A stretch of 64,000 nucleotides of DNA from assembly GCA_964612745.1 (NCBI GenBank), contig CAZTCH010000001.1:6074-70073 (forward strand). The letters are read 5' to 3'. The stretch comes from an uncultured Candidatus Saccharibacteria bacterium. GTDB lineage: Bacteria > Patescibacteriota > Doudnabacteria > UBA920. The notes under the pieces were generated by a model. That model saw only the letters and a program-made list of their open reading frames with translations, did not search any database and had not been told where the DNA came from. How positions within the stretch are numbered: position 1 is the first letter of the stretch; every line of letters starts with the position of its first letter. Made by a program: the position numbers and the translations under genes. This document shows, one piece after another, positions 2,481 through 55,970 of the stretch.

Positions 2481-2924
2481 TTATTCTGGTTTTTGCACCG
2501 TACGGCGGAAGAGTAGTAGGAGTACTGTAATTCCGAGGAAACCAAGTGCTGCGAGCAATGGTATGGTCACGAATCCACCCCATTCAATGAACTTTGTAGT
2601 ACAGGAAACACCTGCGACACAAGGAGCTGCTGCTTCGGGTAAAATTTCGTAGTATAGCAGGTTGTGGTACAGGGCAATTCCGAGTCCCACAAGGGAGAAT
2701 GGTAGTGCGTAGCGAAACACAGATCGGTCTTTCGTGGCAATGCCTACTGCGAGAATGGCGACGAGGGGGTACATGCAAATGCGCTGGTACCAGCAGAGCA
2801 CGCAGGGTGGGTAGTTGGCGATTTCACTAAAATACAGACTGCCAAGCATGCCTATAATACTGCCTACCCATGCCAAGAGTAAATAGCCCAATGGCCATGG
2901 TTTTTGTTGTGATTGTATATCCAT
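2481..2924 (-). CDS. disulfide bond formation protein B (DsbB/BdbC-like)
   Basis: 147-aa 4-TM protein with paired Cys motifs (PPCVLCWYQRICMYP and APCVAGVSCTT). It sits adjacent to the DsbA-like gene. Confidence 0.7.
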   Translation of the reverse strand: MDIQSQQKPWPLGYLLLAWVGSIIGMLGSLYFSEIANYPPCVLCWYQRICMYPLVAILAVGIATKDRSVFRYALPFSLVGLGIALYHNLLYYEILPEAAAPCVAGVSCTTKFIEWGGFVTIPLLAALGFLGITVLLLLFRRTVQKPE

Positions 2925-2973
2925 ATAGATATTGTATCACGAAGCGTTTGGTGTTTGTTTGGCCCTAAAACGA

Positions 2974-4383
2974 CTAGTTTTGAGTCTCTGGAACCGATTG
3001 GGAGATGATTTGTTTGTACGTAAAAGCGCTGGGTCTGATGGTGCGAGCTTGGTTGTTTGCGTAATCTACAGCAACAAGTCCAAACCTTGGCCAGAAACCT
3101 TTATCCCATTCGAAGTTGTCCAGAAGTGACCAGGTAAAATACCCACGGACATCTGCACCAGTTTGTAGAGCTTGTTGTACCCAAAAGATGTGGTCAGAAA
3201 TATATGCTGCTCGTAAAGTATCTTGCGCATCTGCAATCCCATTTTCTGTAATATAGATCGGTTTATTGTAACGTTGCGTTGTCTGCATGATTAGCTCGTA
3301 TATGCCATGTGGGTAGACTTCCCAGCCCATGTCGCTCTGTATTGGGGCATTAGGGTCTGGAAAGTTTCGTATCGACACACCATTTTTTCGGTTGAGTGAG
3401 ACTGCGTATTGCATTGGTCCGTAATACTGAATGCCAATAAAGTCCGAATAGTCCTTGGTTGCATCAAGAAATTTCCAATTGGCAAAACCATCAAGATACT
3501 GTTGTGCAAGAGTATTTAGTGCGGTTGCTGGTGCTGCACGTCCTAGTTGCATAGCATGCGTGCTCCCGACTTGCGCGGCTGTATTTTTAGAGTGAATAGC
3601 AGTGTAGGCTTGTTTGTGTGCTTCCATCATGCGCGCAAAGGCCTGATTACCTAAGCGGATACTGCGTTGTTCTGGTGGGATGATTCCTTGGACATATCCT
3701 CCACCAATGTGTAGTTCTGGTTCATTAAACGTCATGTAGTAGGTCACTTGCGAGCCAAATGTCTCTGCGACTTTTGTAGCAAATCGCGTAAAATCGCCCA
3801 CTGTTTTTTCGTTTGTCCATTCGCCTTGATCTGCAATCCAAGTGGGCTGAGTTCGGTGCCATAGTGTGACAAACGGTTCAATGCCCGCTGCTTTGAGTTC
3901 TGAAACAAAAGTCTGATAGTGGTTTAGTGCAGCGGTGTCAAATACTCCATCTGCAGGTTCAATCCGTGACCACTCGACTGAAAAACGATAGGCGGTTAGC
4001 CCGAGCTTTTTCATAATTGCAATGTCTTCCGGGTAACGATGTAACTGGTCCGCTGCTGTTCCAGAAATGTAGTTACTGCTTTCGCTCGCCGTTGCTGAAA
4101 ACAAGCCCCAACGGGGGGTGTTGCTAAATTTGTCCTCAGCCCCAGCAGCGAGCTGCTCAGCATGTGCTTGTTCCCACTGTGTCCAGTCATTGGAGGTGGA
4201 ACCTTCTACTTGGTGGGCAGAGGTGCTTGCTCCCCATAAAAACGAAGTGGGGAGGCGCAGATCTGTTACGGAATATGCTGGGGTCGGGATTTTCTTTCGT
4301 GTAGGGAGTGGTACAGTACAGGCGAGGATTACGAGTAGTATGATTGTGAGAGCGAAGCGGGGTATAAATGAGCGAATATGCAT
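2974..4383 (-). CDS. glycoside hydrolase family 1 beta-glucosidase, N-terminal membrane anchor/signal
   Basis: GH1 catalytic motifs TFNEP (acid/base) and ITENG (nucleophile). 469 aa. Confidence 0.85.
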   Translation of the reverse strand: MHIRSFIPRFALTIILLVILACTVPLPTRKKIPTPAYSVTDLRLPTSFLWGASTSAHQVEGSTSNDWTQWEQAHAEQLAAGAEDKFSNTPRWGLFSATASESSNYISGTAADQLHRYPEDIAIMKKLGLTAYRFSVEWSRIEPADGVFDTAALNHYQTFVSELKAAGIEPFVTLWHRTQPTWIADQGEWTNEKTVGDFTRFATKVAETFGSQVTYYMTFNEPELHIGGGYVQGIIPPEQRSIRLGNQAFARMMEAHKQAYTAIHSKNTAAQVGSTHAMQLGRAAPATALNTLAQQYLDGFANWKFLDATKDYSDFIGIQYYGPMQYAVSLNRKNGVSIRNFPDPNAPIQSDMGWEVYPHGIYELIMQTTQRYNKPIYITENGIADAQDTLRAAYISDHIFWVQQALQTGADVRGYFTWSLLDNFEWDKGFWPRFGLVAVDYANNQARTIRPSAFTYKQIISQSVPETQN

Positions 4384-4460
4384 ATGTATAGTAGTATACC
4401 AGCTCTCGGTTGGGTGCGTGAGGAATACTGTATACTAGAAGTAGTGAAAATTTAGTCTGT

Positions 4461-7725: not shown

Positions 7726-8238
7726 TTAGCCGAACCACTGAATATGCGCGCCAAGGGGGAGTTTGCGAATGGTGGCTCCTGCTGGGTCGGCGGATATCCA
7801 TTCAGCACCAATTTTGACTCGTAGGTGTTGGTGAATAAAGAAATTAAAAAACACCGTTTTCATTTGAATATCTTCTGGTCGAAACAAAGAGCTGGTAGTG
7901 AGTAAGGTAAACAGTAAGTAGTTTTGGGTGTTGCAGTGTGCATAGCCCGGCGCATTCCAAATTTCTTCTAAGTTCGTACGAAAGGCGAGTGGGGCGTACC
8001 AAACTGTTTGCATTCTTCCGGCCCAGTAGCGTTCTGCGACTAGTGTGTATGCAGCGAGAAGATACTCTTTTTGGGTGGGATGATTTTGTTCGAGTGACTG
8101 TACTACTTGTGTAATATTCGCCGGAACATGGGTTGGTTTACCCCACGCCCGAAAGCCCATGAAAGGAGCAGTGAGGCGTAACACAAGAAAAATAAGAAAA
8201 AAGTAACTCAGAATGCCAACTAAAAGGTATGTCCACAT
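7726..8238 (-). CDS. membrane-anchored transglutaminase-like (TGc) superfamily protein
   Basis: N-terminal TM helix. Cys, His and Asp are spaced as in the TGc core: GYAHCNTQNYLLFTLL, then HQHLRVKIGAEW, then ISADP. Confidence 0.4.
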   Translation of the reverse strand: MWTYLLVGILSYFFLIFLVLRLTAPFMGFRAWGKPTHVPANITQVVQSLEQNHPTQKEYLLAAYTLVAERYWAGRMQTVWYAPLAFRTNLEEIWNAPGYAHCNTQNYLLFTLLTTSSLFRPEDIQMKTVFFNFFIHQHLRVKIGAEWISADPAGATIRKLPLGAHIQWFG

Positions 8239-8380
8239 ATAGAATAAGTATACCAGTAGTCTCCTGCGTGCGGAGGGGTAGCCCTAGCGCTGGATCTACT
8301 TCAGGTTTATTGGCTTTTTAGAATGGTAGATCTGAGGTGTAATTCTACGAATTTTGTTTCAGGTAAGCCAATCTAGAGGA

Positions 8381-13192: not shown

Positions 13193-13307
13193 TGTATTAG
13201 CCCTCCTTTGGGTTTCGTGTTGGGGGTATTGTAAGGAATACGGCTAAATATAGCAATTACAAAAAGCTCTATTACATTTCTTGTAATAGAGCGAGTGGTT
13301 GCCTGTT

Positions 13308-13439
13308 CTACTTGGGGAGTGGTTCGTAGCTGGCACGGGGAGAGCTGGGGACTTCGCGGGGAAGTTCGTGCTTGGTACAGCCTGCAGCAAGCAGGGTGAC
13401 CGAAAGAAGAAGTAGGAAATAGATGTGGAATGTTTTCAT
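13308..13439 (-). CDS. small lipoprotein (43 aa), leaderless promoter
   Basis: Manual translation gives MKTFHIYFLLLLSVTLLAAGCTKHELPREVPSSPRASYEPLPK, with a signal peptide and LAAGC lipobox. TATAAT sits 6 nt upstream of the ATG, and a hairpin terminator (13265-13293) follows the stop. Confidence 0.4.
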   Translation of the reverse strand: MKTFHIYFLLLLSVTLLAAGCTKHELPREVPSSPRASYEPLPK

Positions 13440-13520
13440 AGTAGTATTATACCGCATTGTGCCAGTGCATTGATTTTTTTGCCTTATTTTGTTAGTATAA
13501 GCAGGAATTGGGCAAGAGCA

Positions 13521-13556
13521 GAGAATAGAGAGTAGAGGTTAGAAAGAGCTTTTTAG
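13521..13556. repeat. copy of modular low-complexity intergenic repeat (inverted orientation)
   Basis: gagaatagagagtagaggttagaaagagctttttag matches blocks at 2412-2440 and 36960-37000 (CTCTACTCTCTATTCTC) and the AGCTTTTTAG block. Confidence 0.6.
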
Positions 13557-13623
13557 TTTTTCTGGCGTGAAGACTCTCTTGTCTTTCTCGCAACTAGCAA
13601 CTAGTCACTCGCAACTAATTCTG

Positions 13624-13699
13624 GCGCCATCATCTAATGGTTAGGATAGGTGGTTCTCATCCACCAAATCGGGGTTCGATTCCCCGTGGCGCTACCAAT
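13624..13699 (+). tRNA. tRNA-Glu (anticodon CUC), CCA encoded
   Basis: Manual fold: acceptor GGCGCCA/TGGCGCT, D-arm, anticodon stem GGTGG/CCACC with loop TTCTCAT, T-arm CGGGG-TTCGATT-CCCCG, then discriminator A and CCA. Confidence 0.75.
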
Positions 13700-13731
13700 A
13701 AAAATACACCAGCATGCTGGTGTATTTTTAT
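13699..13731. terminator. perfect palindromic hairpin terminator after tRNA-Glu
   Basis: aaaaatacaccagcatgctggtgtattttt. Confidence 0.6.
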
Positions 13732-13732
13732 T

Positions 13733-13930
13733 GGTAGAGAAAAGACACGGGGAATCGAAAAGAGCGGTCCCGCCACCAGCGGGACTGCGCTGCGACTAGT
13801 TGGAGCAGTGCAGAGCGGCGGGGTCGCGTTAGGCGTCATGCGATGCGCCCGAAGGAAGCAGAGCATAGCCGTGGGTGACTGATTCCCCGCATGTTCGCCG
13901 TAGCTTTGGCGAAGGAGTGTGGCGCTACCA
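13733..13930 (+). ncRNA. candidate structured non-coding RNA (GC-rich; SRP-RNA-like GAAGGAAGCAG motif at 13851-13861; ends pair)
   Basis: Lies between two strong terminators. The 5' CGGGGAATC (13757-13765) pairs with the 3' GATTCCCCG (13881-13889), and GGTAG pairs with CTACC. Local hairpins include GTCCCGC..GCGGGAC and GGCG..CGCC. The 3' end duplicates the tRNA-Glu 3' end (gattccccg...tggcgctacca) with a 30-nt insert. ORF-track ORFs here (13637..13882 and others) are judged spurious. Confidence 0.3.
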
Positions 13931-13972
13931 AACTAAAACAACACCGAACAATTGTTCGGTGTTTTAGTTTGC
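13930..13972 (+). terminator. long hairpin terminator (aaactaaaacaacaccgaacaa/ttgttcggtgttttagttt) followed by T-rich tail
   Basis: About 19-bp stem with a 3-nt bulge. Confidence 0.6.
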
Positions 13973-14004
13973 CCTGAGCTTGTCGAAGGGCTCCTGTAAT
14001 CGAC

Positions 14005-14040
14005 GATGGGCACCATGTGCTGCTGTAGATGGTGCCCATC
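14005..14040. repeat. GATGGGCACCAT hairpin repeat family, copy A
   Basis: GATGGGCACCAT-gtgctgctgt-AGATGGTGCCCATC. Other copies at 22635-22679, 42947-43045 and 50862-50914. Confidence 0.8.
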
Positions 14041-14090
14041 TTGCCACCAACTTACTTACCCCACCCCGTGTATTTTGTTATAATTGCTCT

Positions 14091-14579
14091 ATGCACATGT
14101 ATCTTATTGACGGTGTGTCCGGTGCCGGAAAAACAACAATTTGTGAAGAGTTAAATAAGCGCGGGTATAGAGCAGTGGAGGCTGACGAGGTATTAGCAGG
14201 ATTTATTGATCCCGCGACAGGATTGCCTACAGATGACCACTCATCCGAAAATTGGTATTGGAGCAAAGAAAAGTTTGAGAATATGGTCAAAGAAGCGGGT
14301 GAAGCTGATATTTTTGTTTGTGGTGGGGCGATGAATAAACCAGATTTTCTGAATCGATTCACTAAAGTCTTTACGCTACATCTTGATGATGAAACTTTGA
14401 GAGACAGATTGCTACACAGAACTACTAACGACTACGGTAAGAAGCCTGAGGAGCTGGATTTCCAACTCAGGGAGAATCAAAAAACTGTACAGTATTCTAA
14501 GGAGCGTGGTTCTATACTGATTGACGCTACTAAATCTGTCGATGAAGTTTTAACTCAAATAATAAAAAACCTTGTGTAG
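14091..14579 (+). CDS. P-loop NTPase, small nucleotide/antibiotic-kinase-like (AAA_33/CPT-like)
   Basis: Walker A GVSGAGKTT near the N-terminus. ATG at 14091 is 6 nt after TATAAT (14079-14084), a leaderless layout. The ORF-track 13980 start is upstream of the promoter. Confidence 0.65.
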   Translation: MHMYLIDGVSGAGKTTICEELNKRGYRAVEADEVLAGFIDPATGLPTDDHSSENWYWSKEKFENMVKEAGEADIFVCGGAMNKPDFLNRFTKVFTLHLDDETLRDRLLHRTTNDYGKKPEELDFQLRENQKTVQYSKERGSILIDATKSVDEVLTQIIKNLV

Positions 14580-14720
14580 ATCGTTCATACTGCTGACGAT
14601 GTACATTATGTGTAGCTACGACACGCTGTGTTCATTGTTGGGTGGTAATTATATTGAGGCGAGTTGGTAGCGCTGCTTTTTCCTGCTAAAATCACTAAAT
14701 CTAAAACCTAACGAAAAACT

Positions 14721-15200
14721 ATGACTTCAAAAAATACAGTGTGTTTGTGGTACGACCGTGATGCAGAAGCGGCAGCAAACTTTTACGCGGTAACGTTTCC
14801 GGATACGGTAGTGACAGGTGTGCACAAAGCGCCAAGTGATTTTCCCGATGGTAAAGCAGGGGACGTGCTTACCGTTAATTTTACGGTCATGGGCATACCT
14901 TGTATGGGTTTGAACGGCGGACCGGCATTTACACAGAGTGAAGCATTTTCTTTTCAGGTAATTACCGAAACACAAGAAGAAACAGACAAGTACTGGAACG
15001 CAATTGTAGAAAATGGTGGGCAGGAAAGTCAGTGCGGATGGTGCAAAGACCGCTGGGGTGTGTCGTGGCAAATTACCCCACGTGTGCTCGTGGACGCAAT
15101 GACTGCAGGTGGCGAAGAAGCAAAGCGCGCATTTGAAGCAATGATGCCCATGAAAAAGATTGACGTTGCTGCAATTGAGGCAGCACGTAAAGGGGAATAG
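14721..15200 (+). CDS. VOC-family protein (PhnB / 3-demethylubiquinone-9 methyltransferase-domain-like, COG3865)
   Basis: N-terminal CLWYDRDAEAAANFY matches the PhnB-like CLWFDGQAEEAANFY pattern. 159 aa. Confidence 0.7.
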   Translation: MTSKNTVCLWYDRDAEAAANFYAVTFPDTVVTGVHKAPSDFPDGKAGDVLTVNFTVMGIPCMGLNGGPAFTQSEAFSFQVITETQEETDKYWNAIVENGGQESQCGWCKDRWGVSWQITPRVLVDAMTAGGEEAKRAFEAMMPMKKIDVAAIEAARKGE

Positions 15201-15243
15201 CACAGTAAAAGTGGACAGTGGATAGTGGACAGAGAACAGTGCG

Positions 15244-15287
15244 CAGTCGTTTGAGGCCCTGAGGGGTCCTCAGGCCCTCGAAGGGTG
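15244..15287. repeat. hairpin repeat cagtcgtttgaggccctgaggggtcctcaggccctcgaagggtg (left copy flanking tRNA cluster)
   Basis: Internally palindromic (GAGGCCCTGAGG/CCTCAGGCCCTC). The inverted copy at 15802-15853 differs by a few bases. Confidence 0.7.
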
Positions 15288-15303
15288 GATAGTGGACAGA
15301 GGA

Positions 15304-15331
15304 AAAACCGTTGCGGGGCAGCGGTTTTTTT
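15304..15331 (+). terminator. hairpin plus T-run terminator after VOC gene
   Basis: aaaaaccgttgcggggcagcggttttttt. Confidence 0.55.
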
Positions 15332-17211: not shown

Positions 17212-17958
17212 TTAATTCGTTGATTCGTTGTGTGTTGATTCGCTGCTCTCTTCGACGCGGCGGATGGTAATGTCTGTAAAGAGTGCGTCTTGTTCGACGC
17301 TGAATATGCGTTGCTTAATCAGTTCCAGCAGGGCCAAGAATGTCACAATAACTTCCGATTTATTTTTCGCTTGGGAAATAATACTGGAGAGCTTCGTCTC
17401 TATTTGTTTGGCAAGCAGTCCTTGCAAGTGCGTAATCTTTTCTTGAATAGAGATTGCTTCTTTAATGCGTGCCTTAGGCAATGCATCTAGCTCTTTTAAG
17501 TTAGTCAGTACTTTCATGACTGCATTTTGCAGTTCGCTTGTCGTGACGCTTTGGTCTGGAAAAAAACTGATGCGCTGCGAAAATACTAGAGTCCGAGTAA
17601 AGCTTTGTTGCTGCAGTGCGTCGAGCACTTTAAGGTGGCGCGCTACTTCGCGGAACTGTTTGTAGAGTAAGAGCTGGGTTTCCAGCGGGACTCCGGCGTC
17701 ATCTTCCTCTATGTCTACTTCTAACGTCGGCAAAATTGCTTTGGACTTTATGACGAGTAACTTTGCAGCAATTGCTAAGTAGTCAGACAACGAGGTTGGG
17801 TCTAGTTCTTCTAATTGTCGAACATACTGCAAAAACTGCTCGGTGACTTGCGCCAAAGAGACTTCGGTAATATTGAGCTTCTGGTTTTCTATTAACGACA
17901 ACAGCAAGTCCAGTGGTCCTTCGAACTGTTGTTTTTCTAATGTAATAACGTGTGACAT
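17212..17958 (-). CDS. scpA: segregation and condensation protein A (ScpA)
   Basis: N-terminal FEGPLDLLLSLIENQKLNITEVSLAQVTEQFL is the ScpA signature. Confidence 0.85.
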   Translation of the reverse strand: MSHVITLEKQQFEGPLDLLLSLIENQKLNITEVSLAQVTEQFLQYVRQLEELDPTSLSDYLAIAAKLLVIKSKAILPTLEVDIEEDDAGVPLETQLLLYKQFREVARHLKVLDALQQQSFTRTLVFSQRISFFPDQSVTTSELQNAVMKVLTNLKELDALPKARIKEAISIQEKITHLQGLLAKQIETKLSSIISQAKNKSEVIVTFLALLELIKQRIFSVEQDALFTDITIRRVEESSESTHNESTN

Positions 17959-17999
17959 GTGGAAAAGTATATAAGCAAGTGCTGTATAGGTAGTATACC

Positions 18000-27032: not shown

Positions 27033-27046
27033 TGTATACTGGTTAT

Positions 27047-27934
27047 ATGCGAAAGGTAACTCTTATTTGTGCTGCGTTGGCAGTGGTGGCAGGGGGATTT
27101 TTTTTAAAACAAGTTTTTTCTGGGGCGTGGGCATTGCCCCAAACAATTAGTGTGGGATTTGTGACGCTGCACTACTATGGCATTACGATGGCACTGGCAC
27201 TTGCGAGTGCATGGTATTTTGCTGTGTATCGAGCACCTCGTTTTGGTTTAGCGTCTGAATGGGTAGACGCGGCTGCAGTATGGCTGGCTTTGGGTGGGTT
27301 TGCTGGTGCGCGGTTGTACCATGTATTTTCTAGCTTTGGTTACTATACGCAGAACCCTGTAGAAGTATTTATGGTGTGGCATGGGGGATTGTCTATTTTT
27401 GGTGCCCTCCTCGGAGGGTTTGCAGCGCTGCTGGGGTACCTGTATTTTTTCCGCAAGCAATCAGCTACTGCAGAAGTATGGGGTTGGTTGGATGTGTTGG
27501 CGCCGGCAGTACTGCTCGGGCAAATAGTTGGTCGGTTTGGGAATTTGTTTAACTACGAAGCATTCGGCTACCCAACGGCACTGCCGTGGAAGATGTTTGT
27601 ACCAGAAGTGTTTCGGCCTGTAGAATTTGCAGCGACACAGTTTTTCCATCCTCTGTTTTTGTACGAAGCAGGGGCAAACGCGCTTATTTTTGCGTTCCTA
27701 TGGTGGTACGCGCGACCTTCGGGTCGGACACCGCTGCGCATGGGGGCCGTGTTCAGTTTGTATATTATTCTGTATAATACTGTTAGATTTTTCCTCGAAC
27801 ACTTGCGCACAGACAGTACATTTCTTTCGCCTCAGGTGCGGTTGAATGCGGTGGCTAGCGCGCTCTTAGTTGTCGTGGGCAGTGCAATTTATTTCTATGT
27901 AAGACGTTATGGCAGAACCTACACTCGTTCATAA
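27047..27934 (+). CDS. lgt: prolipoprotein diacylglyceryl transferase
   Basis: Lgt signature GRFGNLFNYEAFG. Multi-TM. ATG at 27047 is 6 nt after TATACT (leaderless). The ORF-track start 26921 runs through the palindrome region. Confidence 0.8.
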   Translation: MRKVTLICAALAVVAGGFFLKQVFSGAWALPQTISVGFVTLHYYGITMALALASAWYFAVYRAPRFGLASEWVDAAAVWLALGGFAGARLYHVFSSFGYYTQNPVEVFMVWHGGLSIFGALLGGFAALLGYLYFFRKQSATAEVWGWLDVLAPAVLLGQIVGRFGNLFNYEAFGYPTALPWKMFVPEVFRPVEFAATQFFHPLFLYEAGANALIFAFLWWYARPSGRTPLRMGAVFSLYIILYNTVRFFLEHLRTDSTFLSPQVRLNAVASALLVVVGSAIYFYVRRYGRTYTRS

Positions 27935-37010: not shown

Positions 37011-37149
37011 GATAAACCGTCTGGTCCGAAATTTGCCCCATGGTATAGTAATGGTAGGTGCGGCGACAGAGTGAGTCGTGCTGTATAACAAAACTTTTTA
37101 AACAAACAAACCAAAAAGCATACGCGTGGTTTGTTTTATTTTTTTATAT

Positions 37150-38310
37150 ATGGATCAAGACCAATTACAAACGCTGATTTCTGAGGCGGAACGGCAAGGT
37201 GGAGGCTTGGTGCTTCGCGTAGGCGAAGCACCCCAAGCAGTAGTGTTGAGTGTCGCAGCGTATTCTGAATTGCTCTCTGGGAGAACTGGGCTTGTGCCAG
37301 AGTTAGAGCCGCAAGACGGAGTAGTGACTGAATCACGGGTGACGCCTGCAAAAACTATTTTAGTAGTGGGTGGTGCGGGGTATATTGGAAGTGTACTTGT
37401 GCGAGAACTATTGGCTGCTGGGGTGCGTGTGGTTGTGTTAGACAATCTTTCTTCGGGAGCGCGTGAGCAGGTGCCTGCAGGTGTGGTGTTTATTGTGGGA
37501 GACTTTGGTGATGCGGCGCTCTTGCGAGATGTATTTGCAGAATATACAGTGAGCGCAGTGGTGCATGTTGCAAGCGTTCATGGCGATGCGGAGAATGCAG
37601 TGGTAGCTCAGGAGCTGCTGCGGAATTCTACGCAGGCACTCTACACGCTTACTACCATCATGGCTGAAAACAGTATTACAGATTTAGTTTTTACATCCGA
37701 TGCGCTTCTTACCTTGCTTGGCCAGTTACAACCGGTAGTGAGCAACACACACGCCACACTACAACCACGTACCGAGACAGCATTGCTCGCAGAGTCTGTG
37801 CTTCGCTATGCAAGTAATTTTTTAGGGTTGCGAACAGTTGTGATGCGTCTTGGTACTGTTGCAGGGGCCATGCCCGAAAGTGGTGTGTACGGAACTTTTC
37901 ACCGACATGGATTTTTAGCTCAGGTGTTGCGGGTTGCCCGCGGGGTTGGTTCGTCTGTAGTAATTCCTGGGGGTGACTGGAATACTAACGATGGTACATA
38001 TGTTCGTGACTATGTGTTTGTGGGAGATGTTGCAAAAGCTGTAGCCGCAGTGGTGCATGCGCCATTTCACGCAGGCATGCAAGTGTACGCGTTTGGGAGT
38101 GGCAAGGGAGTAAGTATTCGCGAACTTATTCAAGCGGCAGCAGAGTCGACAAGTCGAATGATTCCAATGGAACTTGGGCCACGAAATGAACAAGATGTTG
38201 AAAGGATTGTAGTGGATGCAAGCGAGTTTATGAAAACATATGAATTTGCTTGTACCCCAAAGAGTATTCACGAACTTATTGCATCTGAATGGGTCGCTCC
38301 CACGGTGTAG
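37150..38310 (+). CDS. fusion protein: Phd/YefM-like antitoxin-type N-terminal domain + GalE-like NAD(P)-binding SDR domain lacking catalytic Tyr/Lys
   Basis: N-terminus QTLISEAERQGGGLVLRVGEAPQAVVLSVAAYSELL fits the Phd/YefM fold pattern. Rossmann ILVVGGAGYIGSVLVRELLAAGVRVVVLDNLSSG is GalE-like. The expected S-x-YGxSK region reads TSDALL...QPRTETALLAE (Tyr and Lys absent). ATG at 37150 directly follows TTATAT (leaderless). Confidence 0.6.
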   Translation: MDQDQLQTLISEAERQGGGLVLRVGEAPQAVVLSVAAYSELLSGRTGLVPELEPQDGVVTESRVTPAKTILVVGGAGYIGSVLVRELLAAGVRVVVLDNLSSGAREQVPAGVVFIVGDFGDAALLRDVFAEYTVSAVVHVASVHGDAENAVVAQELLRNSTQALYTLTTIMAENSITDLVFTSDALLTLLGQLQPVVSNTHATLQPRTETALLAESVLRYASNFLGLRTVVMRLGTVAGAMPESGVYGTFHRHGFLAQVLRVARGVGSSVVIPGGDWNTNDGTYVRDYVFVGDVAKAVAAVVHAPFHAGMQVYAFGSGKGVSIRELIQAAAESTSRMIPMELGPRNEQDVERIVVDASEFMKTYEFACTPKSIHELIASEWVAPTV

Positions 38311-38361
38311 CTTTTTTCTTAGGGAATATGCTACCATGTAGGTATATTATTGATATTTTTT

Positions 38362-39081
38362 ATGCAAAAGCTTTCTGTGGTAATCCCTTCGTATAGCGAA
38401 GCGGCTCGTATTACTCCAACAATAAAAGAGACAGACGCCTTTTTGTCTGCGCAAGGATATGACTATGAAATTTTAGTCGTCATCGATGGTGCGAAAGACA
38501 ACACTGCGGCAGTGGTGACTGAACTACAAGCGTCTGTACCGAAACTTCGTGTGATTAACAACCCAGAAAATCATGGGAAAGGGTATGTCGTGCGCCAAGG
38601 GATGTTGGAAGCAACTGGCGATATCCGGTTGTTTATGGACGCGGATAACTCCACAAAGGTAGTGCATATTGCAGAGTTTTTGCCATTCTTCGAACAGGGG
38701 AGTGATATTGTTGTTGGTTCACGTCGTATTGCCGGTGCAAATATAGCAGTCCACCAAGGTTTGTTGCGAGATTTCCTCGGCGGTGTGTTTCGGTTTATTG
38801 TCCACACAATTGTGCCACTTGGGGTGACCGATTCGCAGTGTGGGTTTAAAGCGTTTACCGCTGCAGCTGCAGAAAAAGTATTTCCGAAACAAACTATTGA
38901 CCGTTGGGCATTTGACGTAGAAATTTTGGCTATTGCTCGAAAGATGAAGCTGACTATTCACGAAGCTCCAGTGGTGTGGGTCAACGACGGTGCGAGCACC
39001 GTGCGTTTCTCTGGCATGGTTCACATGCTGCTTGAAATCTTGGAAGTCCGCTGGAATTTGTGGACGGGGAAGTACAGATAG
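38362..39081 (+). CDS. family 2 glycosyltransferase (polyprenol-phosphate sugar transferase, Dpm1/GtrB-like)
   Basis: VVIPSYSEAARI, DGAKDNT and MDADNS (DxD) motifs. The ATG is 6 nt after GATATT. Confidence 0.8.
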   Translation: MQKLSVVIPSYSEAARITPTIKETDAFLSAQGYDYEILVVIDGAKDNTAAVVTELQASVPKLRVINNPENHGKGYVVRQGMLEATGDIRLFMDADNSTKVVHIAEFLPFFEQGSDIVVGSRRIAGANIAVHQGLLRDFLGGVFRFIVHTIVPLGVTDSQCGFKAFTAAAAEKVFPKQTIDRWAFDVEILAIARKMKLTIHEAPVVWVNDGASTVRFSGMVHMLLEILEVRWNLWTGKYR

Positions 39082-43226: not shown

Positions 43227-44588
43227 CTACTTGCTCGCTACATTCAAAGGGTTGCTGTTGAACACTTGAACTAATCGATGAATTTTGAGTACGTAGTTCA
43301 CTGTTTCGTTGCGTAGGATTGCTCTGTCGAGGCTATCCCGCTCTGCGGTGAGTGAGTTGAGAGTTGCTTGTTCTGCACTTAGAGTTTTTTGCACAGCTGC
43401 TTTCTGGGTTTTACCAGTTGTTTTCTTAAGCTTAGTTTTTAAGCTGTTTACAACGGTGTTTTGTAGTGCGATTTTTCCGTTGAGTGGGGAGAGTTTATCG
43501 CTGTTGTCTTCGTACCATGCGGTGCCAAATTGACGCGCGGCATTGGCAACTCTGGCTGGTCCACCGTTGTACGCGGCAACACCGTAGTCGAAAGCGTGGC
43601 CACTTAAGAAGTACTCGGGGGCTCTGTCTTGCACTGCTTTAATGTAGTCGTCGAGCAAGATAAACGTAGCTTTGACTGCGTTGGTGTGGTCGCGCATGCC
43701 AGTAACAAAATTTGGAATAAGCTGGGCGTCAGGGTGGCGTTTGACGAGTGACGCATATGTAGAAGGAATAAACTGGCTAATTCCTGCTGCGCCAGCGCTC
43801 GAGACACTGTATTTCCACGTTTCACCTTTGTTACTACCCAAGAGTATATTTACTTTTTTAATGAGCTGTTCTGTGTCGGTAGTGTTTAAAAACTCTGTCG
43901 TGTCCATATGCTCGGCGTACAAGAGGGCGCGGACCAACTCTGGTTTAATGGCTTCGGGGATGCTTTTTCCTGGGACACTGACGGAGTTTTTGTTTTGTAG
44001 CGCTGTGGTGGCTGCGGTAATTACACTAGAGAGGTACGTGTTGCCAGCTTGGCTGACCCCGTCGTCTAGGAGCTCTGGGGAATACGGTGTGTAGATACCG
44101 TCGTAGAGCGCATTTTCAATTGCAGCTTTGCTACCCGTTTCTACCGGCGAAATAAGGTACTTGAGCGCTACTACTTTGCCGTTGGCTGGGGTTTGCACTG
44201 AGAATCGTGTATTAACACCGTTGAATCGTATTTTTGTGATAGCGAAATTTTTGTCTGGGAACTCAAACGAAGTATCACGCTGGATTGCTGCGGTAATACG
44301 TATTTGATTTGTGGCAGGGTCAAGGATTGCCAAGGCAAGATCTTTTGCGTCTAGCTTGTACCCAGAAAGTACTTTGGTAGTCGTTTTTTTCTTCTTTACC
44401 GTTTTTGTTACTGTTTTGTACTGTGGCGAAATAGAGTAATTGAGCTTGACTGGCTCAAGCAATTTTCGTGCTTCGTCTATTTTTTGCACTAAATTGAGGT
44501 CGGGGGTATTGCTGGCTGTGTCTGCTGCTACGGTATTTTGACTGAGAGCAAAACTGACGAGAACGAGTGAAAGAAGGAGTTTTTTCAT
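43227..44588 (-). CDS. secreted lytic-transglycosylase (SLT)-domain protein
   Basis: Signal peptide. The AGAAGISQFIPSTYASL motif matches the SLT catalytic-region pattern. Confidence 0.6.
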   Translation of the reverse strand: MKKLLLSLVLVSFALSQNTVAADTASNTPDLNLVQKIDEARKLLEPVKLNYSISPQYKTVTKTVKKKKTTTKVLSGYKLDAKDLALAILDPATNQIRITAAIQRDTSFEFPDKNFAITKIRFNGVNTRFSVQTPANGKVVALKYLISPVETGSKAAIENALYDGIYTPYSPELLDDGVSQAGNTYLSSVITAATTALQNKNSVSVPGKSIPEAIKPELVRALLYAEHMDTTEFLNTTDTEQLIKKVNILLGSNKGETWKYSVSSAGAAGISQFIPSTYASLVKRHPDAQLIPNFVTGMRDHTNAVKATFILLDDYIKAVQDRAPEYFLSGHAFDYGVAAYNGGPARVANAARQFGTAWYEDNSDKLSPLNGKIALQNTVVNSLKTKLKKTTGKTQKAAVQKTLSAEQATLNSLTAERDSLDRAILRNETVNYVLKIHRLVQVFNSNPLNVASK

Positions 44589-44669
44589 GCTTTTAGTATA
44601 TCACGTGAGCGTTCTTGAAAATTGAGTGTGGGCTTTCTGCTGCGGAGCGCTTCTGGTATGATTATGCAT

Positions 44670-46166
44670 ATGGCAACACCATCTAAAAATATTTTGTGGC
44701 TTTCGGTGTCTCGGGTGCTGGGTTTAGTTTTGCTCTTTTTTGCGTACACACAGTTATTTCGTTACTTAGGCCCGTTTGGTACAGGGCAGTACCAGTTTGT
44801 GCTTTCTTTGGTCACAATTTTTGGGGTGGTGATTGATTTGGGGATTTCGCAGTATGTGACCAAAAAAATTGCAGAAGAACCAAAAGAAGTATCGAAGCTA
44901 TTTCACACGTTCTTTGCTGCAGAAGTATTTTTGGCGGGTATTATTTATGCGCTCATGGTGGTGTTTGTGTTTTGGCGTGGGTACGAACCCGTGGTGCAGC
45001 AAGCGGTGATGGTGGCGGGGGTTGGGCTGTTTTGCTATGGGTTAACGACGCCATTCCTTTCGGTGCTTTCTGCGTTTCAGGATTTACGTCGAGTAGCCGC
45101 AATAAATTTGCTTGCTTCGGTAATTAATGCTGTCATAATTTTTTCTGCTATTCATTTCCAGCACTACATTGTGTTTTTGGCGTTGAACCAAGTGGTGTAC
45201 GGTGTAGTAGCTTTTTTCTTGTACCGGCATTTTGTAAAGGCGTATGTGCCACAGATGCACTTGTGGGCAGTACTGCAGCACGTGGACTGGAAGCTGCTCA
45301 AGAAGATTTTGGTTGCAGCATTACCGTTTGCACTCCTTGTGAGCTTTAGTACCGTGTACAATCGCATAGACATTGTAATCATTACGAAGTTGCTTGGATA
45401 CGCAGAGACGGGGTTGTATACAGCAGCGTACAAAGTGGTAGATTTGACCAACTTTTTCCCTGCGGTAGTGTCGCATGCGTTGTACCCAGTATTGGCAGCG
45501 CTCATGGCAAAGGGTGCGCTTTCGGAAGTGCGGGGAACTCTTGAAAAATACATGCGGTTTATGGTGGCTTTGGCGTTGCCCATGGCAATGCTGGGGAGTC
45601 TTTTGTCTAAGCCACTTATTTTGATTTTAACCAGCGGTGACGCGCGTTTTTTGCCCGCGGCACCAGTTTTGTCTATTTTGGTGTGGGCGATTGCTATTTT
45701 GTTTATATACGTAACTGCGAACTCTTTGGTAGTGTCGCAGTTAACGAAGTGGGCAGTGGTGGTCACGGGGGTAAATGTGGTCATAAATATTGTGGGCAAT
45801 GTAGTGCTCTTGCCGTGGATTGGCATTCGGGGAGCGGCAATCATGACGGTGGTGTCCGAAGGGCTGCAAGGTATATTTTATTTTTACTTTATTTGGAAAC
45901 ATATAACTCATTTTTCACTGGTGCAAGCATTTGCAAAGCCACTTGCAGCAACACTCTGCATGGGCGTGTTAGTCTTTGTGCTTCGTGACATGGTGGCGTT
46001 AGGGTTGCCAGATGCAGCTTCTGCAGCTCAGATGGCAGTACTTGTTGCAAAAGTTGCTGGTGTTGCTCTGCTTGGTTTGACTACGTATGTTGCGGTGCTG
46101 GCTGCAGGAAAGTTTTTTACCTCCGAAGATATTGCTTTCGTGAATCGCTTTTTGCGCCGCGCGTAA
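44670..46166 (+). CDS. MOP-superfamily polysaccharide flippase (Wzx/MurJ-like)
   Basis: About 14 TM helices and a polysaccharide-biosynthesis-protein-like N-terminal pattern. The ATG at 44670 is 7 nt after TATGAT. Confidence 0.7.
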   Translation: MATPSKNILWLSVSRVLGLVLLFFAYTQLFRYLGPFGTGQYQFVLSLVTIFGVVIDLGISQYVTKKIAEEPKEVSKLFHTFFAAEVFLAGIIYALMVVFVFWRGYEPVVQQAVMVAGVGLFCYGLTTPFLSVLSAFQDLRRVAAINLLASVINAVIIFSAIHFQHYIVFLALNQVVYGVVAFFLYRHFVKAYVPQMHLWAVLQHVDWKLLKKILVAALPFALLVSFSTVYNRIDIVIITKLLGYAETGLYTAAYKVVDLTNFFPAVVSHALYPVLAALMAKGALSEVRGTLEKYMRFMVALALPMAMLGSLLSKPLILILTSGDARFLPAAPVLSILVWAIAILFIYVTANSLVVSQLTKWAVVVTGVNVVINIVGNVVLLPWIGIRGAAIMTVVSEGLQGIFYFYFIWKHITHFSLVQAFAKPLAATLCMGVLVFVLRDMVALGLPDAASAAQMAVLVAKVAGVALLGLTTYVAVLAAGKFFTSEDIAFVNRFLRRA

Positions 46167-46720: not shown

Positions 46721-46787
46721 GTTTGCGTACGGTATTTCCATCTCGAGGCTGCAAGCGCGGCCTCTTTTTTCTTGATATACTGTATAT

Positions 46788-47882
46788 ATGATTATTGGCA
46801 TAGAAGCAGAGCGGGCGAATAGTGGGCAGAAGACGGGGGTAGAACACTATGCCCAGCAACTTATTTTACAATTTGCAGAGATAGACAAGGAAAATCAGTA
46901 CGTATTGTATTTGCGGACACAGCCGCAAGAGTGGATTTTGCAATTACCCAAAAATTTTAGTTATAAAGTAATGCCGTTTCCGTTGTTTTGGACGCAACTG
47001 CGGCTTTCTTGGGAAATGTTGCGACATGCCCCAGATGTACTGTTTGTGCCAGCAAGTAGCATGCCGTTGGTGCACCCACGTAAAACGGTAGTAACAGTGC
47101 ATGACTTGGCGTTCATGTTGTACCCAGAAACATATACTTCGTTCATGCGGTACTACCATATGTTTGAAGATGTGCTGGTGAGTCGTTTGGCGTGGCGGGT
47201 GATAACCGTGTCCGAAAGCACCAAACGTGATTTTGTAAAGTTTTGGCAAGCGGACGAAAAGCGGATTCGGGTCATACACCACGGGTATACTGCTCAGTCT
47301 GCTACAACCTACAACCTACAACCTACAACCTCACTACAGTTGCCAGAGAAGTTTGTGCTGTTTCTCTCTACCCTCCAGCCGAGGAAGAATTTGCACGGAC
47401 TGATTGCTGCGTGCAAAGAATATAGACTGCAGCACTCAACTGAAGATCTGAAGCTTGTGGTGGCAGGGCGCGTTGGGTGGAAGTCGGAAGAAATTGTTGC
47501 AGAAATAGAAGCGAATAAAGATTTTGTGGTGCACCTCAACCATGTGACAGATGCAGACAGGGCGATGCTCTACCAGCGTGCGAGTGTGTTTTGTGTGCCG
47601 TCGTTCTACGAAGGGTTTGGTATGTGGATTTTAGAAGCGTTTGATGCGGGGGTTCCGGTGGTCACGTCGAATGTGTCTAGCATGCCAGAAGTGGCAGGGG
47701 ATGCATCCGAGTACTGCGACCCGCACGATATGGCGAGTATTGCCAGTGCACTTACGCGAGTTCTGCAAGACAAAGAAAGAGCCGCTCTACTTGTCCAAAA
47801 AGGACGAGAGCGGCTACAAGAGTTTAGCTGGCGTAAGTGTGCCGAAGAGTCTTTGGCTACTCTGACTTCTCAGGAGCAATAA
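46788..47882 (+). CDS. family 4 glycosyltransferase (GT-B, GT4)
   Basis: EGFG motif (PSFYEGFGMWILEA). The ATG follows TATACT by about 7 nt. Contains an in-frame 9-nt microsatellite. Confidence 0.8.
   Translation: MIIGIEAERANSGQKTGVEHYAQQLILQFAEIDKENQYVLYLRTQPQEWILQLPKNFSYKVMPFPLFWTQLRLSWEMLRHAPDVLFVPASSMPLVHPRKTVVTVHDLAFMLYPETYTSFMRYYHMFEDVLVSRLAWRVITVSESTKRDFVKFWQADEKRIRVIHHGYTAQSATTYNLQPTTSLQLPEKFVLFLSTLQPRKNLHGLIAACKEYRLQHSTEDLKLVVAGRVGWKSEEIVAEIEANKDFVVHLNHVTDADRAMLYQRASVFCVPSFYEGFGMWILEAFDAGVPVVTSNVSSMPEVAGDASEYCDPHDMASIASALTRVLQDKERAALLVQKGRERLQEFSWRKCAEESLATLTSQEQ
47301..47338. repeat. in-frame 9-nt microsatellite (acaacctac x ~3.5) within the GT4 coding sequence
   Basis: gctacaacctacaacctacaacctacaacctcac encodes TTYNLQPTTYNL-like linker repeats. 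Confidence 0.8.
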
Positions 47883-53212: not shown

Positions 53213-53551
53213 TTAGAAAAAATGAAAGGAAGAGACAGCGATGTTTAAGAGACTATGGCTATACGCCAGAATTTTACTCATCGTTGCCCTAATCTGGGGT
53301 CTGGATGCGGTCATAAATTACCGCAAGCCATACCCTGTTATTACTTACAACATAACACTCACCAAGTTGTAAGTAAGCCCACCTTGCCAGCTGTAACAAG
53401 CTGGCATTTTCTTTTGTATTGACTTTTATGCTAAAAAGTGGTAAAATGCATAAAAGCAAAAACGGCAGAAAGTTCTGCCAAAACCACAAAAATCTGAGCA
53501 AGGCTAGTTTTCTAGTTTTGTTCTTCACCACCCTGTAAGGAGGGGAAAATC

Positions 53552-53962
53552 GTGAAAAGAGTATTCTTGTTTTTGGTAGTTGTGGGATTTATTGGGTTGG
53601 TATTTTGGTCGGCTTACAACATTGGTAAAAGCCCCAACCCAAATAACGCGCCATTTATTGCGGAGCCAACACAGCCAACGGTGACTCCTACCGTTGACGC
53701 ATCGGTGAACCTCATTACTGTCCGGGGGTTCGTGCAAACTAAATTGCCCGGCACATTTTACGTGAGCAAAAGCAGAATATACAAAACCCCAGAAGGGGGG
53801 ATGTACATCATTGCTGATAGTAAAATTTACAGAGAGAGATTCTATGACGATGAAGTCCAGATTGCCTTCGACGGTAAAGAAGGCCGCGTCGTTGGCTCGA
53901 TTGAGGGTATCACAAACACCAATGCTAGTATTGGTCCGTATGACATGCCACTCACAAACTGA
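53552..53962 (+). CDS. membrane-anchored hypothetical protein (GTG start, SD AGGAGGGG)
   Basis: 136 aa with an N-terminal TM. Confidence 0.5.
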   Translation: MKRVFLFLVVVGFIGLVFWSAYNIGKSPNPNNAPFIAEPTQPTVTPTVDASVNLITVRGFVQTKLPGTFYVSKSRIYKTPEGGMYIIADSKIYRERFYDDEVQIAFDGKEGRVVGSIEGITNTNASIGPYDMPLTN

Positions 53963-54047
53963 CTATCGCTAACCTTTTTTGACCCGCATGCGCTGTGCTT
54001 TGCAGCACTCGCATGACAGGGTCTTTCTTTTTTGGTATATTTTAACT

Positions 54048-55970
54048 ATGAAAGCAACAGAAGTCAGGTCAAAATATTTGCGGTTTTTTGAAGGTAAGGG
54101 CCATGTCGTCATACCTTCTGCATCTTTAGTGCCAGAGAACGACGCTACGACGTTGTTTACCGGAAGCGGTATGCAGCCAATGGTGCCGTATTTGCTGGGC
54201 GAACCTCACCCGTTGGGTACGCGGATTGCGGACTCCCAAAAGTCATTTCGCAGCCAAGATATAGAAGAAGTGGGCGACAACCGTCACACGACGTTTTTTG
54301 AAATGTTGGGCAACTGGTCCTTGGGTGACTTTTTTAAACAAGAGCAGATTCCGTGGATGTTCGAATTTTTGACTTCCGAACTGGGGCTAGACCCAAGCCG
54401 GATTTACGTGACTTGTTTTCGGGGTAATGACGACTTAGGAATTCCTCGCGACACCGAAGCAGCAGAATTGTGGCAAGGGTTGTTTACGCAAAAAGGTGTA
54501 GACGCAAACATTGTAGATTTCCCTGAGCAGGGTGGCATGCAAGGTGGGCGCATTTTTTACTATAACGAAAAAAAGAACTGGTGGAGCCGTTCTGGTGTGC
54601 CTTCTGCTATGCCCGTGGGTGAGCCTGGTGGACCAGATACAGAAATGTTCTGGGATTTTGGTGCAGCACTTGGTTTGCACGAACAATCCGAGTGGAAAGA
54701 CGAACCATGTCACGTAAACTGTGACTGTGGCCGATTTATGGAAATTGGCAACAACGTGTTCATGGAGTACATCAAAACCGAGACTGGTTTTGAAAAGCTT
54801 AAGCAGCAAAATGTAGATTTTGGTGGTGGGCTCGAACGTATGGCAGCCGCGGTGGGTGATAACCCAGACATGTTCCGCGTGGATTTGCTGTGGAGTTTGG
54901 TGGAGTACATTCAGACAGTGACTGGTAGACAGTACGCAGAGTCTGCAGAAGTGACCAAACAAATGCGTATTGTGGCAGATCACATTCGGGGTAGTGTGTT
55001 TTTGGTGAGTGATGGTGTGGTCCCTTCCAACAAAGACCGTGGCTATGTGCTGCGTCGTTTGCTGCGCCGTGCAATGGTGGCCGTGCGTATGTTAGGAAGC
55101 CAAGCCGATTGGGTTGCAGGAGCTGTAGCAAAAGTCATAGAGATTTACAGCGACTCCTACCCACAACTGGCAACCAACGAAGCACAGATTACCAAAGTTA
55201 TAACAGAAGAAAAAAATAAGTTTGCGACAACTTTAGATAAAGGGATAAAAGAATTTCGTAAGATTGCTATTGATCATTCAGTTGATTTGGATACAGATGC
55301 AGGCGGCTTGCGTGATAAACCATCTAAGGTTTTTACTGCTGTGGATGCGTTTAACTTATACCAAACATTTGGTTTTCCTTGGGAGCTAACCCGAGACTTG
55401 GCCAAAGAGGCAGGGCTCTCCGTGGACGAAGAAGAATTTAAGGCAGAGTTCAAAAAGCACCAAGACTTGTCTCGTACTGCGAGCGCTGGTGACTTTAAAG
55501 GTGGACTTGGCGGTACAGGCGAAATCTATACTCGGTACCACACTGCAACGCACTTGCTACAAAAAGCGCTCCGTATTGTGCTGGGTGAAGACGTGTGGCA
55601 GAAGGGGAGCAATATTACCGAAGAGCGCACTCGGTTTGATTTTACTTTTGGCAGAAAAATGACAGACGAAGAAAAGCAGCAAGTAGAAGATTTGGTAAAC
55701 TCATGGATTGCTCGTGACTTGGGAGTAAAGCGTGAAATGGTAGCACTGGAAGAAGCACGAGCTCGTGGGGCTATTGGGTTGTTCGGCGAAAAGTACGCAG
55801 ACACCGTGTCTTTGTATACCGTGTACGACCCGAAGACAGAAGAAGTGATTTCGCTCGAGTTCTGTGGTGGGCCGCATGTAGAGCACACGCAGATTATTGG
55901 CAAATTTAAAATTCAAAAAGAAGAAGCAGTCAGTGCTGGTGTCCGCCGGATTAAAGCGGTTATTGAATAA
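54048..55970 (+). CDS. alaS: alanyl-tRNA synthetase, short form lacking C-terminal C-Ala/DHHA1 domain (~640 aa)
   Basis: Class II catalytic blocks (FFEGKGHVVIPSASLVP, FTGSGMQP, NRHTTFFEMLGNWS), editing-domain HxxxH (HTATHLLQKAL) and CGGPHV. The ATG at 54048 is 6 nt after TATATT (leaderless). The ORF-track start 53979 lies upstream of the promoter. Confidence 0.85.
   Translation: MKATEVRSKYLRFFEGKGHVVIPSASLVPENDATTLFTGSGMQPMVPYLLGEPHPLGTRIADSQKSFRSQDIEEVGDNRHTTFFEMLGNWSLGDFFKQEQIPWMFEFLTSELGLDPSRIYVTCFRGNDDLGIPRDTEAAELWQGLFTQKGVDANIVDFPEQGGMQGGRIFYYNEKKNWWSRSGVPSAMPVGEPGGPDTEMFWDFGAALGLHEQSEWKDEPCHVNCDCGRFMEIGNNVFMEYIKTETGFEKLKQQNVDFGGGLERMAAAVGDNPDMFRVDLLWSLVEYIQTVTGRQYAESAEVTKQMRIVADHIRGSVFLVSDGVVPSNKDRGYVLRRLLRRAMVAVRMLGSQADWVAGAVAKVIEIYSDSYPQLATNEAQITKVITEEKNKFATTLDKGIKEFRKIAIDHSVDLDTDAGGLRDKPSKVFTAVDAFNLYQTFGFPWELTRDLAKEAGLSVDEEEFKAEFKKHQDLSRTASAGDFKGGLGGTGEIYTRYHTATHLLQKALRIVLGEDVWQKGSNITEERTRFDFTFGRKMTDEEKQQVEDLVNSWIARDLGVKREMVALEEARARGAIGLFGEKYADTVSLYTVYDPKTEEVISLEFCGGPHVEHTQIIGKFKIQKEEAVSAGVRRIKAVIE

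Follow-up and report, generated by a model that had tools for sequence, protein, structure and literature searches.

How are genes translated whose start codon follows a promoter −10 box by only 6 nucleotides (nt)? The question is raised by a P-loop kinase gene of an uncultured Candidatus Saccharibacteria bacterium (GenBank assembly GCA_964612745.1, contig CAZTCH010000001.1; placed by GTDB in the Doudnabacteria of the Patescibacteriota), which lies in the window analysed here, a stretch of 64,000 nt with a G+C content of ~46% whose own numbering is used throughout. The original prediction held that at least eight genes in this window have a TATAAT-like hexamer 6–7 nt before the ATG and no Shine-Dalgarno (SD) sequence, implying transcripts that start at or next to the start codon. 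A base-by-base check found the box at this distance for six of the eight (the kinase, lgt, alaS, a GT4 glycosyltransferase, a flippase and a small lipoprotein), whereas a GalE-domain gene (ATG 37150) and a GT2 gene (ATG 38362) did not have it, and a systematic scan brought in five further sites, all on the minus strand (ATGs 2924, 44588, 17958, 8238 and 4383). All sequence-level tests that were run favour transcripts beginning at or beside the ATG, and we consider it likely that the class as a whole is expressed as leaderless messenger RNAs (mRNAs) from extended −10 promoters. The 11 sites are listed here with the spacing between the end of the hexamer and the start codon.

14076..14084 (+): extended −10 element TGTTATAAT of the kinase gene, the focal site (TGT-TATAAT, hexamer 14079–14084), then the 6-nt spacer TGCTCT and ATG 14091; written with spacer and start, TTTTTGTTATAAT-TGCTCT-ATG
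14091..14579 (+): P-loop nucleoside monophosphate (NMP)-kinase-like gene (AAA_18), 162 amino acids (aa); ATG 14091 is the predicted +1
54033..54050 (+): alaS (54048–55970), TGGTATATT (TGG-TATATT, hexamer 54036–54041), 6 nt, ATG 54048
46745..46790 (+): GT4 glycosyltransferase gene, hairpin GAGGCTGCAAGCGCGGCCTC and TTTTTT followed by TGATATACT (TGA-TATACT, hexamer 46776–46781), 6 nt, ATG 46788
44586..44603 (−): gene for an SLT-domain protein (43227–44588), TGATATACT (hexamer 44600–44595), 6 nt, ATG 44588
2922..2939 (−): gene for a DsbB-family disulfide oxidoreductase (2481–2924), TGATACAAT, 6 nt, ATG 2924
44654..44672 (+): Wzx-type flippase gene (44670–46166), TGGTATGAT (TGG-TATGAT, hexamer 44657–44662), 7 nt, ATG 44670
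27035..27049 (+): lgt (27047–27934), TATACT 27035–27040, 6 nt, ATG 27047; a TG abuts the hexamer, with no canonical TGn
13437..13451 (−): 43-aa open reading frame (ORF) with a lipobox (LLAAGC), the putative lipoprotein, TATAAT 13451–13446, 6 nt, ATG 13439
17956..17971 (−): scpA (17212–17958), TATACT, 7 nt, ATG 17958
8236..8255 (−): gene for a 170-aa protein, TGGTATACT, 8 nt, ATG 8238; predicted leader 1–2 nt
4381..4401 (−): GH1 glycosidase gene, TGGTATACT, 9 nt, ATG 4383; predicted leader 2–3 nt

The spacing is thus 6–7 nt at nine of the sites and 8–9 nt at two, and each of the 11 has either 41 nt or more of gap on its upstream side or a neighbour that is divergent, as expected of the first gene of a transcription unit. 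The promoters of the flippase and SLT-domain genes stand back to back. For GT4, box and 6-nt spacing were as originally described, with approximate coordinates that were off by one base. The strongest single sites are those of the kinase, alaS, GT4, 44588 and 2924, and there is a fair case for the lipoprotein, lgt and flippase sites; for any one site our confidence is lower than for the class.

The pattern is not due to chance at the level of the class, although chance may still account for weak single sites such as 37150. With a mechanical rule that takes the first ATG of each coding ORF as the test set (n = 56), a TAnnnT hexamer matching TATAAT in at least 4 of 6 positions stood 6–7 nt upstream in 7 cases, while the window's other 1636 ATGs had one in 26 cases (Fisher p = 6.5e-5). 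With the extended form, TGnTAnnnT, the corresponding counts were 4 of 56 and 6 of 1636 (p = 2e-4), and homology supports two of the six "other" ATGs as starts, those of alaS and the flippase; six of the ten window ATGs with this arrangement are gene starts. Shuffling only the 20 nt beside each start, which controls for local A+T richness, gave 1.5 expected boxes with at least 5 of 6 matches where 9 were observed, and 0.28 expected extended −10 boxes where 6 were observed (p ≤ 2e-4 for both). In Escherichia coli K-12, used as a control with 43 annotated coding sequences, there was a single box at 6–7 nt, no extended −10 box and no spike.

The same spacing recurs in gene calls over which the motif had no influence. 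Among 115 public gene calls from five relatives, taken from loci around kinase orthologues and made independently of the motif, TAnnnT occurred 20 times at spacing 6 against ~2.5 at other spacings, and TGnTAnnnT 12 times against ~0.3. A box peak at 6–7 nt is also present in 359 further long ORFs from ~90 other Patescibacteria loci, which were retrieved via alaS and an ABC transporter, these bait genes being excluded from the count. The regular −10-to-ATG spacing anticipated in the original prediction therefore appears as a sharp peak at 6–7 nt in the window, in the relatives' gene calls and in other candidate phyla radiation (CPR) loci. Two broader surveys did not recover it. A global spacing histogram over all 1693 ATGs of the window has no spike because the true starts among them are too few, and conditioning on ORF starts or on TG-extended boxes is needed to see one. 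A generic −35/−10 consensus scan of positions 1–20000 returned no more promoter-like sites (24) than expected (25.5) and failed to pick up most of the −10 sites; it is uninformative because these promoters are without a −35 element.

The bases around the hexamer speak to what kind of element it is. In an alignment of 27 spacing-6 sites, a TG dinucleotide at −15/−14, a position that lies outside the motif used for selection, was found at 17 sites (74% by the alignment) against 5 of 128 starts without a proximal box (p = 8e-12). The alignment also contains T at −17 and −15 within a T-rich stretch from −21 to −15, and no information content near −35; at alaS, ATGACA occurs at a 17-nt spacing from the box. 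The resulting promoter consensus is TTTTTG-n-TA(T/C)A(A/C)T with no detectable −35. Within the window, TG at −15/−14 is present at 7 of the 11 sites, including GH1, and is absent at lgt, the lipoprotein and scpA. TG and hexamer together form a predicted extended −10 element, which is the signature of sigma-70-family promoters.

In several cases the promoter is placed on the T-tract with which the preceding gene's terminator ends. The clearest examples are those of alaS and GT4, where the upstream gene's terminator ends 2–6 nt before the box and therefore leaves no room for another promoter or for a leader. The alaS terminator is as follows.

53981..54032 (+): intrinsic terminator of gene 53552–53962, hairpin 53981–54023 followed by TTTCTTTTTT (−27 kcal/mol, z = −4.0)

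The TTTCTTTTTT tract ends 2 nt upstream of the alaS −10 box, and at GT4 a GC-rich hairpin with its TTTTTT ends 6 nt before TGATATACT. Across the larger sample, a hairpin with a T-run abuts 7 of 35 leaderless-type starts against 6 of 128 other starts.

The arrangement is conserved among orthologues. Kinase orthologues with 60–75% identity have TGATATCAT (locus L098), TGTTAGAAT (L099) and TGATATACT (L100), each 6 nt before the ATG, and in L097 TACACT stands at the same distance with no TG; L096 is not clear-cut. The geometry is kept in these orthologues though their spacer sequences are unrelated. One kinase homologue is named Candidatus Doudnabacteria by NCBI, and the alaS product is 78–84% identical to proteins of metagenome-assembled genomes labelled Candidatus Doudnabacteria or Saccharibacteria and 50–63% identical to those of a wide range of other Patescibacteria; these matches place the organism in the Patescibacteria, with a probable relationship to Doudnabacteria. 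Across the phylum, a box lies 6–7 nt before the aligned ATG in 18 of 71 alaS orthologues against 2.9 expected from local shuffles, oral Saccharibacteria with TGGTATAAT-7-ATG being among the 18; the alaS architecture is found in L001, L002 and L059. Strain L101, at ~98% identity in the promoter regions, is too close for a test of conservation. A metagenome scan with the ABC transporter yielded relatives at ~60% identity whose synteny was limited to the ABC gene pair and which were therefore unusable for comparing neighbouring sites, and an exact look-up of the window protein 58062–59726 gave no match.

Whether the ATGs are the true starts was checked with profiles, homologue lengths and public gene calls. 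Position 1 of the full-length profile NF002436 aligns to the Met at 54048 of alaS, the Pfam and NCBIfam profiles of the kinase begin 4 residues after Met 14091, and position 3 of the Polysacc_synt profile aligns 5 residues after Met 44670 of the flippase; for the kinase, flippase, GT2, GT4 and DsbB alike, the profiles start within a few residues of the proposed Met. The kinase homologues (n = 38) are mostly 160–165 aa long, and ATG 46788 of GT4 is the first ATG of its ORF. Public calls on the source contig match nine proposed starts (14091, 54048, 46788, 38362, 2924, 44588, 8238, 17958 and 4383), with product lengths of 162 aa for the kinase, 640 for alaS, 364 for GT4, 453 for the SLT-domain protein, 147 for DsbB and 248 for scpA. 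On this evidence, the box-linked ATGs are the true starts of alaS, kinase, GT4, DsbB, SLT, ScpA, 8238 and GH1, with a less firm case for the lipoprotein, the flippase and lgt. The call for lgt on the source contig is at 26969, and three of five cluster members (at least 90% identity) were called at 295 aa, which corresponds to start 27047. The public flippase call uses ATG 44664, which is only 1 nt past the box and therefore cannot be on a transcript from that box.

The two genes of the original eight that fell away are not supported as leaderless starts.

37104..37152 (+): GalE-domain gene, ATG 37150; the only TAnnnT at 7 nt is TATTTT, inside a terminator-like T-tract
38343..38364 (+): GT2 gene, ATG 38362; TATATT 13 nt upstream, predicted leader ~6 nt, not leaderless

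At 37150, the TTATAT that had been cited abuts the ATG with a spacing of 0, and a hairpin (37104–37136) and its T-tract continue directly into the ATG; the extended −10 element TGGTATAGT at 37041–37049 would give this gene a leader of ~95 nt. At 38362, only 4 nt separate the GATATT that had been cited from the ATG, and the good box is the TATATT further upstream, a block that is conserved in strain L101 though an indel there makes the spacing 14.

The 11 leaderless-type genes make up 19% of the 58 protein genes in the window and 26% of those that have a divergent neighbour or a gap of 40 nt or more on their upstream side. None of the leaderless-type sites has a GGAGG-type motif, so the stated lack of an SD sequence at these genes was borne out. 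GGAGG was found 3–12 nt upstream of the start in five other genes against 0.24 expected (p = 5e-6), the actual distances being 4–9 nt, and three of the five start with GTG.

53532..53554 (+): SD contrast site AAGGAGGGG, 8 nt before GTG 53552
31580, 33437, 13192 (−) and 26888 (−): the other starts with GGAGG

Strong SD sequences had been attributed to five genes. Those at 31580 and 53552 are as described; 40943 and 46451 have weak SD-like runs only, and at 12578 lies the 3' end of a gene on the minus strand whose GTG start at 13192 does have GGAGG 9 nt upstream. Any SD 4-mer occurs at 7 of the 58 window genes against 25 of 43 in the E. coli control, and the SD share of genes is ~9–12%. Approximately 40 genes, including the ribosomal-protein and rpoA genes at 60371–63092, have neither box nor SD, and the 20 nt before start codons are overall 71% A+T and 12% G. 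Leaderless-type and SD-led starts do coexist, as had been proposed, but most genes have neither feature and there are at least three classes of gene start, not two.

The sequence itself shows the site geometry and its excess over chance, the start codons, the TG signature, the conservation among orthologues and in the phylum sample, and the adjoining terminators; from these we infer both the transcription start site and the mode of ribosome loading. The sigma-A (sigma-70-type) holoenzyme would recognise TGnTAnnnT without a −35 element, and initiation would fall on the A of the ATG or within 1–3 nt of it; at a spacing of 6 nt, the hexamer occupies −12 to −7 and +1 is therefore placed on the A. 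The mRNA would have neither a 5' untranslated region (UTR) nor an SD sequence, and by analogy with Deinococcus and mycobacteria its 5'-terminal AUG would be bound by ribosomes directly. The start codon is ATG at all 35 leaderless-type starts, none of which has room for an SD.

A number of points weigh against this interpretation or reduce the support for it. The genes at 8238 and 4383, with spacings of 8–9 nt, would carry leaders of 1–3 nt, and read-through from upstream genes could add leadered transcripts elsewhere. The exclusive use of ATG by the leaderless class is statistically indistinguishable from start codon use in the rest. A pyrimidine at −1 was considered as a start-site signature and rejected: it occurs at 26 of 27 sites but also at 81% of other starts, and being general to all starts it has no power of discrimination. 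The 43-aa lipoprotein ORF at 13439 is absent from the public gene calls in either length, and the gene itself is therefore hypothetical. Four starts (13439, 27047, 44670 and 54048) were chosen among in-frame alternatives partly for the box; of these, 54048 and 44670 alone have independent profile support, that for 27047 being indirect, through the 295-aa calls in relatives. The only CPR start-site set found in the literature, for N. lyticus, was itself derived from RNA-seq coverage.

Other explanations of the boxes have to be weighed against leaderless expression. The boxes could be real promoters whose functional mRNAs are not leaderless, either because a downstream start codon is used or because upstream promoters and terminator read-through dominate. 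In the kinase gene another in-frame ATG (14097) follows after 6 nt, the flippase region has three clustered ATGs, the apparent leader of GT2 is ~6 nt, spacings reach 8–9 nt at 8238 and 4383, and terminators are never fully efficient. Against a downstream start, it is with the proximal ATG that position 1 of the alaS profile lines up, and kinase orthologues have 2–4 residues before a conserved YL(I/V)(D/E)G motif, which fits the first ATG; moreover, the spike falls exactly at 6 nt, where +1 is on the A of the ATG, with no spread of distances and no SD downstream of the box. We regard this alternative as unlikely. The hexamer might instead be an A/U-rich, SD-independent translation element, such as a binding or standby site for ribosomal protein S1, within a longer leader. 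The base composition upstream of starts agrees with such an element, an SD in only 7 of 58 genes means that some SD-independent mode must exist, and TAnnnT has small excesses at spacings 0–2. These excesses vanish with boxes of at least 5 of 6 matches or with TG-extended boxes, and only that at 6–7 nt stays. Invariant T, A and T positions, a TG two bases upstream and single-nucleotide spacing are traits of sigma-factor contacts and not of an A/U-rich enhancer, and terminators directly upstream leave no space for another promoter, which together make this reading very improbable.

Finally, TATAAT-like hexamers are common in A+T-rich intergenic DNA, and favourable examples could have been picked from among them; two of the eight originally cited fail, and the consensus scan found no promoter excess. 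The Fisher tests, local shuffles, positional profiles, relatives' gene calls and E. coli control all reject chance, however, and for the class we give it hardly any weight.

Leaderless expression from −10 boxes is well known in other phyla, and the system described here has points of likeness to several of them. Actinobacteria (M. tuberculosis, M. smegmatis, Streptomyces, Corynebacterium) share the TAnnnT hexamer 6–8 nt before the start of first operon genes, a weak or absent −35 and the coexistence of leaderless with SD-led genes. About a quarter of their genes, or 25–50% of transcripts, are given as leaderless in the text of PMC6028130 and in a paper that cites Cortes 2013. In contrast to the Actinobacteria, the genome here is a small CPR genome, with 46% G+C in the window and start sites predicted from sequence alone; an SD is present in ~12% of the remaining genes, most leadered or operon-internal genes being SD-less too; and TG-extended boxes with an upstream T-tract dominate, many promoters being fused to the preceding terminator. 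Deinococcus deserti likewise has a −10 box directly upstream of the ATG, and 167 of its 262 genes with mapped starts are leaderless by experiment, as quoted in PMC6028130; it differs in phylum and base composition, and its start sites and N-termini were measured, whereas ours are predictions. The operational definition of the GeneMarkS-2 "group C", bacteria in which leaderless transcription is frequent, asks for a Pribnow box near −10 relative to the start at a considerable fraction of first genes and for a ribosome-binding site at others, and it also describes the window and its relatives. In the main text of that work, group C consists mainly of Actinobacteria and Deinococcus-Thermus with rare Proteobacteria and Firmicutes, and CPR bacteria are not mentioned there (PMC6028130).

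With respect to the promoter itself, the closest likeness is to the extended −10 (TGn, "−16 TRTG") promoters of Gram-positive bacteria. These have a TG one base upstream of the hexamer and a dispensable −35. The TG has the same position here, and T at −17 and −15 gives TnTG; the difference is that the element's place here is tied to the start codon, with the T-tract of an upstream terminator often put to use again.

For the present lineage we found no published description of this mode of expression. Full-text searches of the literature on CPR, Patescibacteria or Saccharibacteria with "leaderless" or "Shine-Dalgarno" found no description of leaderless genes in the phylum; in the passages returned, "leaderless" stood beside the phylum names only in reference-list entries, in a remark on YchF and in passing single mentions. 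We see an even chance that −35-less extended −10 leaderless expression, often as a terminator-promoter-AUG module of at most ~45 nt, is a major mode across the Patescibacteria that serves ~1/5 of genes and is undescribed in print. CPR bacteria have reduced ribosomes, and if this reading is true, these together with the rarity of SD sequences would make SD-independent initiation the main mode in CPR bacteria. About half of the Parcubacteria have been reported to be without an anti-SD motif, in a study of CPR ribosomes that is silent on leaderless genes (PMC9297842). A large leaderless class, with a remainder that is mostly SD-less, would show how CPR bacteria start translation, and would bring a deep-branching lineage into the debate for the view that leaderless initiation is of ancient origin or is promoted by the streamlining of genomes.

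There would also be practical consequences. Gene callers disagree over these starts in metagenome-assembled CPR genomes, near-identical lgt genes being called at 295, 306, 321 and 337 aa, and a −10 box 6 nt upstream, used as a marker of the true ATG, would put right the annotation of N-termini, signal peptides and lipoboxes in CPR bacteria. The compact promoter (TTTTTGnTATAcT, 6 nt, ATG) would be a ready-made expression cassette for new Saccharibacteria genetic systems; a 2024 perspective on the phylum lists no knowledge of promoters or UTRs.

Several other features of the window were recorded alongside these sites. Upstream of aspS (22690–24462, −), within a 1139-nt gap that has no called gene, there is a divergent T-box-like leader (24645–24877, −; 34.9 bits against a gathering threshold of 93, E = 4e-6) with AGUAG, CCGUUA and AAGGUGGCACCACG elements and a shortened stem I; long regulated leaders therefore also exist in this genome. 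At 9002–9037 (+), TGCTATACT is followed after 6 nt by ATG 9017, which opens a mini-ORF of 6 codons (MRCFEA) 37 nt upstream of the ABC-transporter ATG at 9054. This may be a leaderless leader peptide or the start of a ~37-nt leader for the transporter operon.

In the GalE-domain protein, the Rossmann fold is preceded by ~69 extra N-terminal aa (37150–37371, +) with no Pfam match at E ≤ 0.01, and the label "YefM" that had been given to this N-terminus accordingly found no Pfam support. The gene is preceded by a 385-nt gap (36765–37149, +) that contains a terminator at ~36790–36830, CT-rich short repeats at ~36950–37010 and then TGGTATAGT (37041–37049), from which ~95 nt run to the terminator-like hairpin at 37104–37136. 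These ~95 nt are nearly invariant in strain L101 and are a candidate small RNA or attenuator; an Rfam search of 36760–37160 gave no match.

Two kinds of palindrome occur in the window. A 49-nt double palindrome at 26983–27031, CGTTACGAAGGTGACCTTCGTAAC CGTTACCATGGTCACCTTCGTAACG, lies between divergent genes and folds with a stem of 17 bp (z = −6.1). Its end is 3 nt from the lgt −10 box, and the artefactually long lgt ORF reads through it; it could be an operator or a repeat element. A palindrome resembling repetitive extragenic palindromes (REP-like) is present in four copies (14005–14040, 22635–22679, 42950–43041 and 50862–50914) with identical 12-nt arms (GATGGGCACCAT ... ATGGTGCCCATC) and loops of 12–68 nt, so that 8 arm matches were counted where 0.2 would be expected. 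Every copy is intergenic, most are 3' of genes, and one lies 50 nt upstream of the kinase ATG.

A tRNA cluster downstream of the kinase has two unusual members, and a phage search with the cluster gave no match. In the tRNA gene at 15573–15647 (+; Rfam 58.9 bits), a UUCGC/GCGGA stem carries the anticodon loop UUUUAUA. The anticodon of this tRNA, UUA, would read the stop codon UAA, ARAGORN reports it as "tRNA-Stop", and position 37 is U, which is atypical. Between tRNA-Trp and this gene lies a 124-nt tRNA-like gene (15448–15571, +; Rfam 49 bits) with an insertion of ~50–63 nt in the anticodon-arm region, which ARAGORN, run with introns permitted and not otherwise, calls as an intron-containing tRNA-His(GTG); a group I intron was rejected because the insertion is far too short. 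Despite the UUA-anticodon tRNA, TAA ends 35 of the 57 genes counted in the window, while TAG ends 21 and TGA a single one (53960–53962); out of frame, TGA is as common as TAA. In relatives, TGA stops occur in 0 of 26 genes of L097 and in 6 of 18 genes of L100. The apparent near absence of in-frame UGA may point to a weak or lost release factor 2 (RF2), and a 2026 paper describes a UGA-to-Trp reassignment in another family of the Patescibacteriota.

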